Shown here: positions 54,265 to 61,645 of the stretch, one piece after another
Position numbering within the stretch: position 1 is the stretch's first letter
Layout of the letters: each line of letters opens with the position of its first letter
Assembly (NCBI GenBank): GCA_963666985.2
Contig: CAXXIA010000002.1
Location: 2,944,001 to 3,008,000 of the forward strand
DNA from: Spirochaetia bacterium
GTDB lineage: Bacteria > Spirochaetota > Spirochaetia > DSM-2461
Length of the DNA stretch: 64,000 nt
Reading direction: 5' to 3'
Notes under the pieces: model-generated
Seen by the model: only the letters and a program-made list of their open reading frames with translations
What the model was told of the DNA's origin: nothing
The model's database searches: none
Position numbers and translations under genes: made by a program

Positions 54265-54352
54265 TACGACCGGGGAAAAATACGTACTTTTTCGGATAAA
54301 ATACTTTCACATAACTAAGCGGTAGAGTCGAAATGAAAAAGAGAAAGAGCCT

Positions 54353-55537
54353 ATGCGTAAAGAAACCAGCAAACTGATTCTAAAAAAAGGAAGAGAGAAA
54401 GCGGTATTAAATCATCATCCCTGGCTTTTCTCAGGGTCGGTACAGGAAATCATTGGAACACCGGTTAACGGCGACATTATTCAGGTCTGCGACAGTAAGC
54501 ACAATTATATCGGTACCGGTTTTATGAATCCGGGGAAGTCTTTGACGGTCAGGTTTCTGAGCTTCGAGGATTTGCCGATTAACGGGGCTTTCTGGGAAAA
54601 TCGCATAGAAAGAGCACTTGGTTTCCGTAAAAATCTTATCAATGAGAACACCGATGCCTACAGGCTTATCCATGGAGAGGGCGATATGATGCCCGGGCTG
54701 ACCGTGGATCAATATGCCGATTATCTTGTAACTCAGATATCGACAAGCGGCATGGAAAGGGTGAAAGAGCAACTATACGAGATTCTGCTGGAAAAAACCG
54801 GGGCCCTTGGACTCTACGAAAAAAACAACTTTTCCTCGCGGAAATCTGAGAAATTGCCCCTATACGAGGCTGTTTTTCAGGGAAGTATTCCCGAAGAGAT
54901 TCCAATAACGGAAAACGGATATAAGTTTCAGGTCAATATAAGAACCGGACAAAAAACGGGATTCTTTCTTGATCAACGGGATAACCGTACCTGCGTTAAG
55001 AACTTATCCGAAGGGAGAAAGGTTTTAAATGCCTGCTGCTACACCGGCGGATTTACCATTTACGCCGCCGCCGGTGGCGCTCGGAGCACATTAAGCTTGG
55101 ATATTTCGGAAAACGCGTTGAAGGCGGCGCAAGAGAATATGCGTCTTAACGGGTTTGACTCTGAAAATCACGGATATGAAACCGGAAACATATTCGACAA
55201 GCTGAAAACATACAAAGATGAGAATTTTAACCTGATCGTGCTGGATCCGCCGGCCTTTGCGAAAAGCAGAGAAACGGTAAACTCGGCCGCAAGGGGATAC
55301 AAGGAAATCAACAGGCAGGCTTTGAGCATCATGGCCCCCGGAGGGATTCTTGTTACCTGTTCCTGCTCACAGCACGTGGATAGAAATCTGTTTCAAAAAA
55401 TCGTTCACGACGCGGCAATCGAGGCCGGAAGATTTATCAGAGTGATTGAATATCGATCACAAGCATCGGATCATCCGATAAGCATGGATCTTCCCGAAGG
55501 GGAATATCTGAAATGCCTGATTGTATATGTGGAATGA
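54353..55537 (+). CDS. rlmI: Class I SAM-dependent rRNA methyltransferase (RlmI-like)
   Basis: HPWLFS, GQKTGFFLDQR, YTGGF, LDPPAF, TCSCS, YLK. Confidence 0.88.
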   Translation: MRKETSKLILKKGREKAVLNHHPWLFSGSVQEIIGTPVNGDIIQVCDSKHNYIGTGFMNPGKSLTVRFLSFEDLPINGAFWENRIERALGFRKNLINENTDAYRLIHGEGDMMPGLTVDQYADYLVTQISTSGMERVKEQLYEILLEKTGALGLYEKNNFSSRKSEKLPLYEAVFQGSIPEEIPITENGYKFQVNIRTGQKTGFFLDQRDNRTCVKNLSEGRKVLNACCYTGGFTIYAAAGGARSTLSLDISENALKAAQENMRLNGFDSENHGYETGNIFDKLKTYKDENFNLIVLDPPAFAKSRETVNSAARGYKEINRQALSIMAPGGILVTCSCSQHVDRNLFQKIVHDAAIEAGRFIRVIEYRSQASDHPISMDLPEGEYLKCLIVYVE

Positions 55538-55551
55538 ATCTTCGAATGGAA

Positions 55552-56838
55552 TCATCCGGCCCTGCTGATTCTCTTTCTCATCATTTCCCTCAGCCATAAC
55601 CCCGGCCTTGAAGCGGTCAGCGTTAATGGAGCGTAAAACGCCCAGAAAGCGGAGCAGTCCTGAACGACGATGCCGGCGGCCCTAAGGAACATCGCGGCGA
55701 TCAGCCCCAAAAGATTCACCGTCCAGAACCAGGAAAGAACGATTTGAGCTTTTCGGCGCCGCTCTTCGGATGATTTTCGGCCGAGGAAAACAGACAAAGG
55801 CACCAGGGCGAACAAAATCGTGGGAAAAGCCGGCCAGAGATTCAAGTTGCCGTGAGCCGCGAAATGGTCGGTGAAGGCCATGAGAAATCCGAGCAGACCC
55901 CCGGGGAGTCCGACGATAAGGATAATCAGGGTTCCTGTAATTCCTGCCGTGGCGTGTTTCCAACGGCCGGCACCGGAGTGTTGAGGCGGCCGAAATAAAA
56001 ACGCCCAAAGAACGGAAAGCAGCAGGCCGAAGAGAGCGGCAATCGGCCAAAGAACCTTCGGCGAATCGGGAACCGGCGGACGCGTCGAGGTTTTCAGAAC
56101 GAGAGGATCGCCGGCCAATGTCCTCCTGATGCCGCCGCTGTCGATATAGGTGAGTTTCATCGATTCCTCGGCCACACGCTGCGGAAGGAACATCATGTCC
56201 CATTTATCAACCGGTACATCCGATGAAGGACCGAGGAGAAAATGAAGAAGAAATTCGGCGGCAACAGACTCATGCGCTCCTGTTCTGGCGTAATGCCGAA
56301 AGGTTAAATCCGGCCGGTTTTCCGTCGCGGCCTTCAATTGACCGCCGGTGGAATCGTTTAAAATGTCGCGGATAATCGTGGAGCAGTTATTCAGAAAGTA
56401 GTCGTAAAGGTATTCTCTGTTTTCGGGCAGAACCCACCGGCGCAGTACCCGCCGGAGTTCTTGAATCTCGTTATCGCCGAGATTCAAAGGATAAACGGTC
56501 AAATCCCGATCTTCCATCTGAGAGTAGCGGAGAAAGGTGTCCGTCGGGGTTTTCAGGCCGAGGTAGATCATCTTCCCCATGGCGAAATCCCTATAGAAAT
56601 TCTCTGAATAAAACGAAAAATTACCAAAGTCGTAAAACAGGCTCTCTCCCGTATCGGTTTGCTCGATAGCGAGGCCGATGTGTCCCCAATAGGTATAAAT
56701 AGGATCCCCCGGACCGACGATGATCAGCTCCGCTTTCAGGTTTTTATCGGCAAAAACGGGTATGAGAGACGAAACGAAGAGCAGGAAGATCAAATTTAGA
56801 CGAAAAAAGTGGTTTTTAGGGCGAAGAAATGACGTCAT
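55552..56838 (-). CDS. DUF4105/Lnb-like membrane protein (putative lipoprotein N-acyltransferase)
   Basis: GPG..IY..WGH, YDFG.F, YLYDYFLNNCST.IRD, MFLP; C-terminal TM helices. Confidence 0.75.
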   Translation of the reverse strand: MTSFLRPKNHFFRLNLIFLLFVSSLIPVFADKNLKAELIIVGPGDPIYTYWGHIGLAIEQTDTGESLFYDFGNFSFYSENFYRDFAMGKMIYLGLKTPTDTFLRYSQMEDRDLTVYPLNLGDNEIQELRRVLRRWVLPENREYLYDYFLNNCSTIIRDILNDSTGGQLKAATENRPDLTFRHYARTGAHESVAAEFLLHFLLGPSSDVPVDKWDMMFLPQRVAEESMKLTYIDSGGIRRTLAGDPLVLKTSTRPPVPDSPKVLWPIAALFGLLLSVLWAFLFRPPQHSGAGRWKHATAGITGTLIILIVGLPGGLLGFLMAFTDHFAAHGNLNLWPAFPTILFALVPLSVFLGRKSSEERRRKAQIVLSWFWTVNLLGLIAAMFLRAAGIVVQDCSAFWAFYAPLTLTASRPGLWLREMMRKRISRAG

Positions 56839-56887
56839 AGAATAATCATAGGTCTCTTTAGGGGAGGACGGGAACCGGGATTAGGGG

Positions 56888-56919
56888 TATAATATGGAGA
56901 ACTACTGTCAACGAAGGAG
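56888..56919 (+). promoter_or_regulatory. -10 box and RBS of the histone gene
   Basis: TATAAT at 56888-56893; AAGGAG at 56914-56919, 6 nt before the ATG. Confidence 0.6.
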
Positions 56920-56925
56920 CCCGCA

Positions 56926-57111
56926 ATGGCTGAAAAAGAAACCTTGGTAATTGCCTCGAAAGTGAAGGCATACATCAAAACGACCGCCGACATGAAGTGT
57001 TCGGCCGCCGTCATCGACGTCCTCTCCGATAAAATTCGCGAAATGTGCGATACAGCTATCGAGAATGCCAAGGCCGCGAAAAGAAAGACTGTCCAAGACA
57101 AGGATTTCTAA
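56926..57111 (+). CDS. Bacterial histone-fold protein (Bd0055/Leptospira-type singlet)
   Basis: LVIASKVKAYIK...M.CS...ID.LS.KI..MC..AI..AKAAKRKTVQDKDF; has the histone L2-loop RKTVxxxD signature. Confidence 0.88.
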   Translation: MAEKETLVIASKVKAYIKTTADMKCSAAVIDVLSDKIREMCDTAIENAKAAKRKTVQDKDF

Positions 57112-57160
57112 AAGACTTTCTTTTCCGAAACCGGAAATACCGGATTTACACATTTATTTG

Positions 57161-57190
57161 AAAAGGCTGTCCGTGAGGGCGGCCTTTTTT
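57161..57190 (+). terminator. Intrinsic terminator after the histone gene
   Basis: AAAAGGCTGTCC-GTGA-GGGCGGCCTTTTTT. Confidence 0.85.
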
Positions 57191-57369
57191 GCTTTTTTTC
57201 TTATGGGCGTTCCCGAGAAAATCATTTTTGGGAAAATCTCATTAGGGTATTCCGCGTTCAACATCAGCTGTGATAAATTGATGGAAAGCTGGGCTGGGGC
57301 CGGTATTCCGTATCATAGTGATTAATATTCGGTTGTCAGTGGTTCGAATCCTAAAAAGAGTTAATTATA

Positions 57370-58532
57370 ATGAATCATCAGCGATTGCTGGATAAAATCA
57401 ACCGCCTTTATTTTGACACCATAGACGATTCCATCTACCCCGACCTTTATTCGCACGGTTATTCCAGGCTTCCTTCGCTGAGCTTGGAAGAAAACAGGCA
57501 GTGGAATATCTGGCATAAGATTGTCAGTGACGACACGATGGATCATGGGATGAAAACCGAGAGTCTCTGCGCCGTTTTGTACGAGATTGATCGGGATACC
57601 AATAAATTCAACCGGCGAACCGCGGTTCTGTACCAACAGCCGGAGATTATCGATCAGGATTTTATCGACGGATTTCGCGGAGATCTGAAAACACTGGCGG
57701 AAACGGTTGTCTATAATCCTCAGACGGAAATCGCCCTCTCGGACAATCATACTCCTTTTACTCATGAACGGCGCTCTCGGGGATGGCGCTGGTTTCTTAT
57801 TGGGCTTGCGGCTGCTCTGATTGAGGGCGCCGCCGTTTGGTACGACATTTCCAAGGTCTCGATTACATTCCCTATAACAGCAGCATTCTTTGGGGTGTTT
57901 TCGGACTGTTTCCCCTTTTGGCCGGACTGGGAGCCGCCGCTTTGTCGCGAATCCGAAGATCTCGGCGCGCGGCGGTCAGTCACCGGCGTTATCGCCGGGA
58001 TTATGCCGTCGTCGTGGACAGACTCAATCTCGCGATTTTCAGCGGCAGCGGTTATGCCTTCGGCGCCGATGTCGTTAAAGAGCTGAACATCCGCAAAGAG
58101 CTGGAATTGGCGGAAGCTCGGAAACGGATTGAGGAACAGCAGGCTCGGATTCGCGAAAAAGAGCTCGTCGACGTCGAGCATAATCTGGATCATCGGGAAA
58201 AAATGCGCATTTTCGAGGAAATGGAATTCCAGATGAAGCTCGATGATGCGGAAGTAAAAAGCCTGCACCTTCAGGTATCGACTCTCATCGAATGCATGAA
58301 CCTGTTGAAAATCATGAAAGAAACTCCGGAACTGTACGAAGAGGCTCGGGAACGCTTCGGCCTGGAGCATATGCAGAAGCTCATTGAGTATGCCGTTGGT
58401 ACGGATTTACCGATTCCGGAAGATTTCGACGACTCCAAGAAACCGGCGAAGATGGAAAGTTCCGAAGAAGATCACGAAACCGTAAAAAGCATAAAGGGAT
58501 CGGGAAGAGCGGGAAAGAAAACCGTCCGCTAG
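57370..58532 (+). CDS. Hypothetical 2-TM protein with coiled-coil C-terminus, split by a +1 indel near 57900
   Basis: ORFs 57370-58086 and 57837-58532 join (FFGVF|GLFPLLAG) on removing one T. Confidence 0.6.
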
Positions 58533-59042
58533 AGTGTTTTCTTCTCAAATGGTGATGATTTTATCACTCAAGGAGAGGGCCTTAAGGATTTAAAGCCGAT
58601 GGCCGAATCGGCGGTTCGAGCAGCGGCGATACCGGTGTGGTATCCCGGATATTCTTTCATAGGAAATCGGCTTGCGGATACGCATCGTTTTGTTGCGAAA
58701 ATGCCCAAAGAGACGTTGATAATTCCCCGTCGAGCTCAATCCGTTCCGTAATCCGTATGAGAAATATTTACTGGAATTCATAAGAAGTTCTTCCGGTATA
58801 AAATAAAAGCCGGCAATAACAATCGTTCAATGATGAACATCAAGATATTTTATCGCTCAAACCAAGCGAAAAATGATGCGTGGAGAAGTGCATTAAGCCG
58901 AAAGGAAATAGAGTTGACTCTGAACCGCATTGAAGAAAGTCTGCATCAATATTTGGATGAACAACATTGAAAAATGAAAAGTTTGACGGGTTTTTTTTAG
59001 TCTGAGGTTTTGTTAATTTCTCGGGAAGACTGGCCGTACCCG

Positions 59043-59985
59043 CTACATATAGTTAAACAGTTTTTGGAGACGATCTTCGACTGTGCCGGCAATACAGGGA
59101 TGAACCACATATTCACCAATAATCTCCGGATGTCTGGAAATTTGATGATGGGGAATAACGGTTATTGTGGAATTGTAGCGTTTGCAGGTAAGAGCGAAGG
59201 GCTCTTTGAAAAGATGGACGGTTGATTTGCGGAACTCCATATCATGAAATGGAATAGATTGACGAAAGACATGTTTCCGTTCTATTTGCGAAAGCAGCAG
59301 AAAATTGAAAACGACTTGGTCGTCCTGAAGACCGAACACCATTAATATGGCCTTTTTCAGGATTCTTTTTGTTCTTTCGTTTGAGTCGACACGAAAAAAG
59401 CCGCAGCAAAGAGTGAATCCTGTTTTGTTAAGGATTTTTCTGGGGAGTGTTAATCCTTGAGAAAAAATAAAGTCGCTATTGAAAGAATCCAGAATCTCCA
59501 TGGGGTTTTTCTTCCAGAGGGCATCCGTATCGGAATGAATGAAAGAAATACCGTTATTGATTAATTCGTAAAATATTTTAGTTCTTACTATCCAGATGAT
59601 GTTATTGTTTATTTCACTGAAAAATCTTGAAATATCGACGATTTTCAGTCCGTGACGACTGATTTCAGATTGTACTTTATCATCAAGGGCAAAGATGATG
59701 ATATTCTGAAATTCAAATTCTTTTTATTGTTTTAAACCATTGTCCGAATAACGGAAGAAAATTGGAATCGATGAATGAAATAATAACCTGATTTCTAAGT
59801 GATGTTTCTTTTATCGTATCAATATCTTTTTCAGTAAGAATATTCTTAAACAGATAGGGTTTTCTTAACCTCAGATGGACTCCTCTCCATATTGAATAAA
59901 GAGATGATTTATAAAAACGTTTAATTTTTTTCAGCGGAAAGAAAAGGTATTTTCTTAATGACATAATTATCCTGAAGCCGTTCAT
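59043..59985 (-). CDS. Nucleotide-diphospho-sugar transferase (GT77/Nucleotid_trans-like); +1 indel at 59721-59725
   Basis: Reconstructed IIIFALD...WIVRT...L.NNG..FIHSDTDALWKKNP...LCCGFF...DDQVVFN; AT-rich. Confidence 0.7.
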
Positions 59986-60121
59986 AGATGAATCGCTTCT
60001 TTTCAGAGGACGATTTAACAATTTTTTAAGGATAATCTTAACGGTATAAGTAAATCAATACAAACTTTTTCTCAAACACAAATGCCGTCTGTGGCTCCGC
60101 ATATTTTATGAGGGCATAACG

Positions 60122-60814
60122 CTATTTAATCCTGTTGAAGAGCGGCCGCCGTTTTCCGAGTTTTTTATCCAGCTGAAGCTGTTCCGCGGCTTTTTTCTTT
60201 TCTTCGCGAATTTTTCGCATTTCCTTAAGCCGTGCTTCTTCGTCCAAAGCCATAATCCAGGGACTTAAGGGGCCTTGTTCTTCATCCTCGCTGTCTGTAG
60301 GGGCGTCCGATGTTTTTGATCGGACTTTGACTCGAACTTTCATTTTGGCGCCTTTACGGGATGTGCCGGTCATGGAGGCTCCGTCCATGGAAGCATCGGT
60401 TAAGTCGGCTCCTTTGAGAATTGCCCCCGAAAGGTTCGCCCTGTGAAAATCGGCGCCTCGTGCCCGAATGTCCGTCATTCGGGCGTTTTCAAGATTCGCG
60501 TCCGTTAATACCGCCCGGTTCATTCTCGCTCCGCTCAAGTCCGCTCCGCTCAAATCCGCTCCGCGGATTCGGGCATTGCTCAGATCGGCTCTGATAAGGA
60601 TGGAAGCCGAAAGGTTCGCGTCGCTCAGGTCCGCTCCGGAAAGATTGGCTTCACCGAGTTTCCTGCCGGCCAGATCCGCTCCGGCAAGGCGGGCCTGAAA
60701 CGAAGGACCGTTTTTTCGGACAAAGGTATTCCAGGAGGATATGTCGTCTTTATCCAGGGCTTCGATAAGAATGGCGAGGTGTCGGGGATTCCCTCGGAAG
60801 TCGTTATTCGGCAT
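60122..60814 (-). CDS. Pentapeptide-repeat protein
   Basis: Tandem A(D/N)LxG repeats (ADLAG, ANLSG, ADLSD...). Confidence 0.92.
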   Translation of the reverse strand: MPNNDFRGNPRHLAILIEALDKDDISSWNTFVRKNGPSFQARLAGADLAGRKLGEANLSGADLSDANLSASILIRADLSNARIRGADLSGADLSGARMNRAVLTDANLENARMTDIRARGADFHRANLSGAILKGADLTDASMDGASMTGTSRKGAKMKVRVKVRSKTSDAPTDSEDEEQGPLSPWIMALDEEARLKEMRKIREEKKKAAEQLQLDKKLGKRRPLFNRIK

Positions 60815-60884: not shown

Positions 60885-61448
60885 TTATTCCCACCCGATG
60901 GTAAGCCTGATCAGCGTGAGTTCCGCATCCTTGCGAACGGCTTCGGGAGGATCCAGCTCTATGAGTTTTTCAAGAATATTGATTCTTTCTTCGCGGAGTT
61001 CCGCATCTCGGAAAGAAAAGCTGAGCGCATAGAACGTTCTGTAATCCGTTGGGGAGAGCCGCATCGACCGCTGGAGCAGATTGTGTCCCTCCTTATGGCG
61101 GCCTTCCATGCCTTCCAGAATACCGAGGTTTCTGAGTGCCGACGGATTGTCGGGCAGGAGTTCAAGCGAGTTTTTTAAGCATTCCCGAGCCGCTTTCAGA
61201 CTTCCCGTACGAAATCTGGCGCAGCCGAGGGCTTCCCATGCATAGGGATTGGACGGATCTTTGGAAATGTAGTGTTCCAGGGCACGGATTGCCTTGAGAT
61301 TCTCTCCGGTTTCCGTATAGGCGATACCGATATCGCAGATGGCTCTTATATCGTCGGGATCGTCGGAGATGATTTCGGAAAGAATAACTTTAGCCTGTTG
61401 AAACGCACCTTCCCTCATAAGGTGTTCGGCTTGATCGACAGTCGGCAT
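60885..61448 (-). CDS. Tetratricopeptide-repeat protein
   Basis: Repeats AICDIGIAY, AWEALGCA, ALRNLGIL with DP/PD turns; AGGAGG RBS. Confidence 0.85.
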   Translation of the reverse strand: MPTVDQAEHLMREGAFQQAKVILSEIISDDPDDIRAICDIGIAYTETGENLKAIRALEHYISKDPSNPYAWEALGCARFRTGSLKAARECLKNSLELLPDNPSALRNLGILEGMEGRHKEGHNLLQRSMRLSPTDYRTFYALSFSFRDAELREERINILEKLIELDPPEAVRKDAELTLIRLTIGWE

Positions 61449-61645
61449 CGGCGCCCTCCTGCGTTTCTTATCGGTCGATTTCTTAATTGACTGTACCCTT
61501 CGGGTATGAAGGACCGGTGGAAAAAGTGTGTATTTCATGTACCGATATCGAGGATGCGTCTCTATGAAGCGTTATGCTTGTCTCCCCTTTGAATCGCCTG
61601 ATATACTGGCGTCGTTTCCGGAAGAGTTCGCGTGGAGGACTCAAC

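Follow-up and report, generated by a model that had tools for sequence, protein, structure and literature searches.

A 61-residue protein encoded in a 64,000-nucleotide stretch of Spirochaetia DNA (the window) is, as judged from its sequence and predicted structure, an α3-truncated histone in the sense of Schwab 2024 (PMC11390915), since an AlphaFold2 model, Foldseek and the phmmer matches to solved structures all agree. The gene is a good, ordinary member of the catalogued HBb-type family rather than the sign of a novel chromatin type. The reading favored here, with a probability of roughly 0.75, is that the product forms an HBb-like handshake homodimer that binds the DNA backbone and bends DNA alongside HU. 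In this model, two histone chains would pair into a dimer that binds without sequence preference, making contacts through the N-terminus and lysines of α1 (S11, K12, K14 and K18) and through the paired loops L1/L2 (K24, S26, K54 and T55), with loop 2 held in place by an R53-D60 clamp. A lone dimer of this kind would bend DNA as HBb does rather than wrap about 60 bp as the HLp tetramer does, and the protein would act as a nucleoid-associated protein beside HU, produced from its own promoter and terminator.

The gene appears to be a self-contained unit (Table 1). The first-pass annotation had described a Lys-rich 61-residue ORF equipped with TATAAT, AAGGAG and a strong terminator, and all of these elements are present (56888-57199, + strand). 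The open frame comprises 72 codons, of which the ATG at 56926 is the earliest start, and the TATAAT ends 32 nt before it. The hexamer alone is weak evidence for a promoter because the -35 region is poor (GGACGG-like) and a consensus scan called no sigma-70 promoter 5′ of the ORF. The stem of the terminator contains 6 G-C pairs among its 13 and a loop of 4, followed by TGCTTTTTTT, and begins 49 nt 3′ of the stop codon. As the histone region holds 2 terminator-like sites against 1.6 +/- 1.3 in shuffled sequence, a count not above chance, the call carries weight because of the strength of the stem and its position past the stop codon rather than the number of sites. The flanks were compared across 17 sequences, namely the window and 16 genomes from the 20 sampled in its family. 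A -10-like hexamer at a similar distance is found in 17/17 of these, a raw count taken without a shuffled control, with several being TG-extended TAGAAT hexamers that end 32-33 nt before the ATG; a Shine-Dalgarno sequence is likewise present in 17/17, and a hairpin with T-run lies within 120 nt past the stop codon in 14/17. On the 5′ side lies a divergent gene for an Lnb-like membrane protein (55552-56838, - strand), and no further + strand ORF begins before 57370, beyond the terminator. The arrangement of neighboring genes and the 3′ terminator both agree with a monocistronic gene, as had been proposed. Its own transcription unit is thus the natural reading of the sequence. An Rfam scan of the whole window gave 0 matches, and hence no known leader or sRNA around the histone gene.

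Table 1. Positions of the histone gene, its signals, two conserved neighbors and the predicted structural elements of the protein
Feature	Position	Strand	Basis
Histone CDS, 61 aa, ATG start, stop included	56926..57111	+	ORF list, translation
-10-like hexamer TATAAT, no good -35, no TG extension	56888..56893	+	read from sequence
Shine-Dalgarno AAGGAG, 6 nt 5′ of ATG	56914..56919	+	read from sequence
Intrinsic terminator, 13-pair stem (57160-57189) and T-run (57190-57199)	57160..57199	+	terminator scan
Pentapeptide-repeat protein	60122-60814	-	conserved in relatives
TPR protein	60885-61538	-	conserved in relatives
Predicted α1	residues 10-21		AF2 model
Predicted loop 1	residues 22-26		AF2 model
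Predicted α2	residues 27-50		AF2 model
Predicted loop 2	residues 51-57		AF2 model
Predicted α3	residues 58-60		AF2 model

The kinship to Bd0055 and the Leptospira histone that had been read from motifs is borne out by sequence searches and by superposition of the model. Against solved structures, phmmer gives nearly equal matches (E about 9e-10 each) to HBb/Bd0055 (8fvx/8cmp; E 8.5e-10, 41.7 bits, residues 5-60) and to HLp of Leptospira perolatii (E 9.2e-10, 41.6 bits), followed by Thermococcus HTkC (E 9e-4). The general histone profiles score below their cut-offs, with 20.7 bits for Pfam PF00808 (cut-off 21.4) and 23.5 bits for NCBIfam archaea_histone (NF043032; cut-off 50). The AlphaFold2 model, built with 57 homologues, has a pLDDT of 86.9, an α2 of 24 residues and a DSSP helix at 58-60 just before the chain end at 61, and α3-truncated histones are described by Schwab 2024 (PMC11390915) as having an α3 of 3-4 residues and an α2 shorter by 4-5 residues. 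With this model, Foldseek returns the HBb chains first (TM 0.86-0.92, rmsd 0.5-0.6 Å, 50% identity), HLp second (TM 0.84-0.92, rmsd 1.0-1.1 Å, 40% identity) and HTkC third (TM 0.83-0.88, 28% identity); every one of the top 9 matches is a bacterial or archaeal α3 histone, and nucleosomal and eukaryotic histones are far behind (TM about 0.55-0.65, rmsd at least 2.4 Å). The motifs SKVK..IK, M.CS and RKTV...D and the DF end that had suggested a bacterial histone are all in the 61-residue protein. The RxTxxxxD clamp motif is present as R53-K-T55-V-Q-D-K-D60, and its residues are nearly invariant among the best 120 of the 135 sequence clusters recovered (R53 in 116/120, T55 in 119/120, D60 in 119/120). 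In the phmmer alignment, the stretch 'AKA(A/D)KRKTV' is nearly that of HBb.

Set beside the known systems, the protein is in structure closest to HBb of Bdellovibrio bacteriovorus (8fvx, 8cmp, 9ezz, 9f0e), with which it shares the short α2, the 3-residue α3, the RKT....D clamp motif, the absence of the FtF Arg/Asn pair, a core Cys and co-existence with HU. It differs in ending at F61 without the few extra C-terminal residues of HBb, in an α1 closer to that of Leptospira HLp and in its host, a member of the Spirochaetia rather than a predator. The FtF tetramer of Leptospira, represented by HLp (9qt0-9qt2) and by LA_2458 of L. interrogans, comes from the same phylum and has an identical α1 stretch 'ASKVKAYIK', the RD clamp and the DF chain end in common with it; the differences lie in the residues of the tetramer interface, in a loop 1 that differs in length by one residue ('one residue longer') and in the Lys-rich N-terminal tail of the Leptospira histones, which is lacking here. 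HTkC of Thermococcus kodakarensis (9f2c), an archaeal FtF histone, shares the α3-truncated fold but is tetrameric. The archaeal nucleosomal histones of PF00808 (HMfB, HPhA) have the histone fold and the RxTxxxxD clamp in common with the protein, but superpose far less well (TM about 0.6 and rmsd 2.8 for HPhA), and the truncation of α3 here leaves no four-helix-bundle interface for hypernucleosomes. HU (PF00216) is unrelated in fold but would be expected to do the same job, that of a small basic dimer that bends DNA independently of sequence, and HBb has itself been likened to HU (Hu 2024, PMC11317129).

The two characterized bacterial relatives differ in assembly, HBb being described as a strict dimer that bends DNA (Hu 2024, PMC11317129) and HLp as a preformed tetramer that wraps about 60 bp with the help of R49, S52 and N53 (PMC12701072). 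FtF histones are recognized by an Arg/Asn pair at the C-terminal end of α2 (R49/N53 in HLp, R48/N52 in the sequence logo), which form a hydrogen-bond network between dimers (PMC12701072, PMC11390915), and Schwab 2024 (PMC11390915) describes bacterial dimers as lacking both R48 and N52. In the phmmer alignment, R49, S52 and N53 of HLp correspond to N47, A50 and A51. Among the best 120 of 135 clusters, Arg occupies position 47 in 2/120 and Asn occupies position 51 in 0/120, and the two residues together occur in 0/182 domains of the best 150 representatives. K12, K14 and K18, the counterparts of K11, K13 and K17 in the bacterial-dimer logo, are each present in 120/120 of the same best clusters. 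The first-pass annotation had likened the protein to the Leptospira type by virtue of its DF end; that end also occurs in Bdellovibrionota/Myxococcota relatives, and by its N47 and A51 the protein is probably, like HBb, one of the bacterial dimers, a category that is defined by sequence clustering.

The predicted assembly is a handshake dimer. A four-copy complex prediction with ESMFold2 scored 0.85 compared to 0.00 for the best of 3 controls, using a custom alignment and four copies, both of which depart from the setup of the calibration, in which the mark was reached by 20/30 proteins solved as same-chain pairs and by 1/23 solved as single chains. Agreement between runs is at least 83% of contacts, with a partner pLDDT of at least 86, and the pass may reflect memory, as like complexes are already solved. 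The predicted handshake contacts include residue 41 with 13/16/17 of the partner and residues 23/24 with 55/56. All confident contacts listed for the scored copy are with a single other copy. The four-copy list shows no dimer-dimer interface of that confidence, although absence from it is not evidence of absence. In addition, the class definition uses AlphaFold-multimer, whereas the four-copy test relied on another predictor.

The opposing possibility, that the protein is an FtF histone like HLp, in which a closed tetramer of two dimers wraps about 60 bp through an interface perhaps independent of the Arg/Asn pair, appears unlikely. It draws on the shared phylum, on an α1 almost identical to that of HLp together with the DF chain end, on the retention of the HLp interface residues F61 and R53 (query numbering) and on a tree in which the Leptospira-type clade shares the query's side of the sole starred deep branch. 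The equal phmmer scores to HLp and HBb and the HLp-like α1 likewise speak against a plain filing under HBb. The replacement of R49/S52/N53, the scarcity of Arg and the absence of Asn at the corresponding positions in the best 120 clusters and the confinement of confident four-copy contacts to one other copy all argue against a tetramer. Schwab 2024 (PMC11390915) moreover describes an N-terminal tail as always present on Leptospira histones, and names the class Spirochaetia as a main home of bacterial dimers. A further qualification concerns the template itself, as the binding mode of HBb is disputed, with an end-on filament described by Hocher 2023 (PMC10627809) and bending by Hu 2024 (PMC11317129).

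The host had been taken for a non-Leptospira spirochaete, and the nearest loci agree, coming from metagenome-assembled genomes (MAGs) labelled Spirochaetes, Spirochaetaceae, Spirochaeta, Treponema and Sediminispirochaeta and from an Olavius spirochaete symbiont. In a sample of 401 genomes of the phylum, including the window's own, 95 have a histone match at E <= 1e-5. Of these, 72 fall in one family (72/75 genomes), are of the Leptospira type and have weaker scores, and 22/325 other genomes also have a match. A class sample of 301 genomes, again including the window's own, yields matches in 63/301 genomes and 28/135 genera. The gene is found in 20/20 sampled genomes of the window's own family and in 5/5 of its genus, and several large families of the class sample have no histone match (e.g. 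0/21 and 0/17). By these sequence searches, the histone is persistent within some free-living Spirochaetia lineages, and the same searches did not recover it from others. In a tree of 101 rows and 61 columns, whose bootstrap had not settled, the Leptospira-type clade forms its own long starred branch, with one member near-identical to HLp (E 3.7e-33), and the Bdellovibrionota/Myxococcota clade is starred as well (99/98), both apart from the query; the query itself sits inside an unresolved Spirochaetia polytomy, outside the latter clade and on the side of the former. As far as this tree indicates, descent does not put the query inside the HBb clade.

Several observations made among the relatives concern other histones. 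Three loci labelled Spirochaetaceae (L058, L064 and L070) carry a Myxococcota-type histone with 'MKTS', that of L070 being identical to L072 from a Myxococcota MAG, which points to mis-binned or mislabelled contigs or to transfer. Two further loci from other families of the same phylum (L097 and L098, in genomes G069 and G006) encode very divergent histone-fold proteins (profile E 1e-10 and 3e-7) with a shortened loop 1 and 'NGRKTLKPQDL' ends on their own starred long branch, which by sequence is another histone type within Spirochaetota. One genome of the same class (G539) has an intact histone copy on contig C27 and a second match on another contig (C60:4135-4316) in two adjacent pieces that cover residues 1-19 and 19-61, which may be a frameshifted paralogue. 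Many of the top protein representatives, including P0121-P0142, are 120-270 aa long with two matched stretches and, to judge from their sequences, are doublet (two-domain) α3 histones with 35-50% identity to the query. In six loci from Bdellovibrionales/Oligoflexia MAGs (L050, L057, L063, L065, L066 and L068), the histone domain ends frames of 184-200 aa, and the Cys/His-rich N-terminal part of L050 is possibly that of a ZZ-type zinc-finger histone as in Schwab 2024.

The surface through which a dimer would contact DNA is largely that of HBb. Of the ten HBb residues with the most DNA contacts in published simulations (Hu 2024, PMC11317129), seven are identical in the phmmer alignment (S11, K12, K14, K18, S26, K54 and T55), and the others are replaced by K59 (R57 in HBb), K24 (N22) and A10 (T8), the last as in HLp. 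Both R53 and D60 of the clamp are retained, and Hu 2024 (PMC11317129) reports that the DNA-binding residues of HBb are conserved in Spirochaetota relatives. DNA binding is thereby well supported by likeness, and we infer that the protein would also bend DNA, be abundant and serve the nucleoid.

Codon usage offers little guide to abundance. With weights calculated from the genome's own ribosomal operon (20 genes for ribosomal proteins and EF-Tu), the histone gene has a CAI of 0.71. This value ranks at the 51.5th percentile among 3592 ORFs no shorter than 150 aa and at the 47.4th percentile of length-matched windows. The average value gives no support for the high expression that the first-pass annotation had read from the sequence and is not evidence of low expression either, because the ribosomal-protein genes barely separate from background (median 0.74 compared to 0.709); selection on codons is weak here, and a gene of 61 codons gives a noisy sample. 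A search for sequencing runs that cover 54300-59300 listed none of RNA; its five rows of unspecified kind, from two studies, were contigs. The same genome contains two HU-family genes, of which HU1 has a CAI of 0.795 (99.5th percentile). The second HU-family match (G000:C3:16573-16848, - strand) is on the 200-kb third contig within a 293-aa open frame and may represent either a copy carried by a plasmid or a larger protein with a fused HU domain.

That the protein is instead a minor or conditional histone-fold DNA binder or regulator, e.g., specific to a stress or a stage, with HU organizing the nucleoid, is judged quite unlikely. The two HU-family genes, the far higher codon-usage rank of HU1, the poor -35 with no sigma-70 promoter called and the growth-phase regulation of HBb itself (PMC11317129) would all fit such a role. 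Against it stand the fixation of the gene in all sampled genomes of its family under strong purifying selection, the retention of the DNA-contact residues and the conservation of a strong Shine-Dalgarno sequence and terminator, and the codon-usage argument is blunted by how little the ribosomal-protein genes stand out. Both characterized relatives, moreover, are described as abundant nucleoid proteins (Hocher 2023, PMC10627809). It is from these relatives in Bdellovibrio and Leptospira that we infer that the spirochaete may use histone-based chromatin, as the first-pass annotation had also proposed.

The two cysteines, for which redox or metal control had been suggested, turn out to be of different kinds, as C41 is a dimer-core residue found in HBb too and only C25 is specific to the clade. 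C41 aligns with C39 of HBb and is Cys in 115/120 of the best 120 clusters and in 119/182 of the wider domains. Its contacts with residues 13/16/17 of the partner in the ESMFold2 prediction place it in the predicted dimer core, and in this model it is a structural, buried residue. C25, by contrast, aligns with a loop-1 Thr (T23 in HBb, T27 in HLp) and is Cys in 118/120 of the best 120 clusters, with Thr in 153/182 of the wider domains. It is, by sequence comparison, the sole clade-specific feature of the histone. A disulfide or metal site formed by Cys25 and Cys41 was considered as well and is unlikely by geometry, with C41 in the dimer core and the two residues about 14 helical residues apart.

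A redox role of C25 is speculation, and it enters into a broader proposal that is rated very unlikely, in which the Spirochaetia 'KCS' clade would add a third type, distinct in function, to the known bacterial histones, oxidation or modification of the loop-1 Cys would loosen or cross-link the protein, and the clade would form a sequence bridge between the Leptospira tetramer and the HBb dimer. The Cys may be on the solvent side at the L1/L2 site, at a position that contacts the DNA backbone in HLp, where T27 is reported to contact DNA (PMC12701072). If true, this reading would imply a redox-responsive nucleoid in mostly anaerobic spirochaetes.

The histone gene is single-copy in a three-contig genome of 4.86 Mb, and its product contains 10 Lys and 2 Arg among 61 residues, with a pI of 8.62 and a net charge of about +2. 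Compared to 16 orthologues of the family, replacement changes are few (pN 0.10-0.21) and synonymous sites have reached saturation (pS 0.66-1.0); dN/dS could be computed for 2/16 pairs and is 0.08-0.09 there, and by these sequence measures the gene is under strong purifying selection. A word-indexed protein search returns 135 clusters at E <= 1e-3, of which the best 120 are 67-97% identical to the query, an exhaustive search returns 447 representatives at the same threshold, and in the GTDB collection relatives are encoded by no fewer than 571 species genomes. A chance ORF is refuted by this breadth and by the substitution pattern, and a eukaryote-like NF-Y/HAP3 transcription-factor subunit, the title 'NFYB/HAP3 family transcription factor subunit' or 'hypothetical protein' on some public records of cluster members notwithstanding, has a negligible chance of being right, given that the top structural matches are bacterial histones rather than NF-Y and that a genome with one histone-fold gene provides no partner subunit.

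The novelty that the first-pass annotation had seen in such a histone does not hold up, as Spirochaetia histones already appear in Table S1 of Hocher 2023 and in Schwab 2024. That table (PMC10627809) lists a protein of Spirochaeta sp. LUC14_002_19_P3 that is our cluster P0004 and 89% identical to the query, as well as histones of Spirochaetaceae and Treponema MAGs, and public records already title members 'histone-like protein' or 'histone H3/H4'. As the literature already contains the family, its occurrence in Spirochaetia and sequences nearly identical to this one, the gene alone changes nothing that is known. Its interest lies in the fact that experiments on bacterial histones cover two lineages only, with HBb in Bdellovibrio and HLp in Leptospira, which differ in assembly and in DNA-binding mode; searches of the bacterial-histone literature turned up no experimental study of such a protein from a spirochaete other than Leptospira. 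The Spirochaetia histones are equally similar to HBb and HLp and are fixed in whole free-living families beside HU. Work on a cultured member would usefully add a third case, from which to learn how a dimer-type histone and HU divide the nucleoid between them and at what point the tetramer interface appeared.

The gene neighborhood was also considered as a clue to function and provides no functional link. The divergent Lnb-like membrane protein gene recurs at 9/80 loci and two downstream genes recur at 8/80 and 6/80, with this recurrence confined to the nearest relatives. Between the histone terminator and the conserved pentapeptide-repeat and TPR genes (Table 1) lie about 3 kb of ORFs without a Pfam match (57200-60100), and the G+C content drops to 0.30-0.34 at 59.4-60.2 kb compared to 0.45-0.57 in the surrounding sequence. 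Less than 3 kb separates the pentapeptide gene from the histone gene in the nearest relatives, and the segment at 57200-60100 therefore looks, from the sequence comparison, like a strain-specific insertion.
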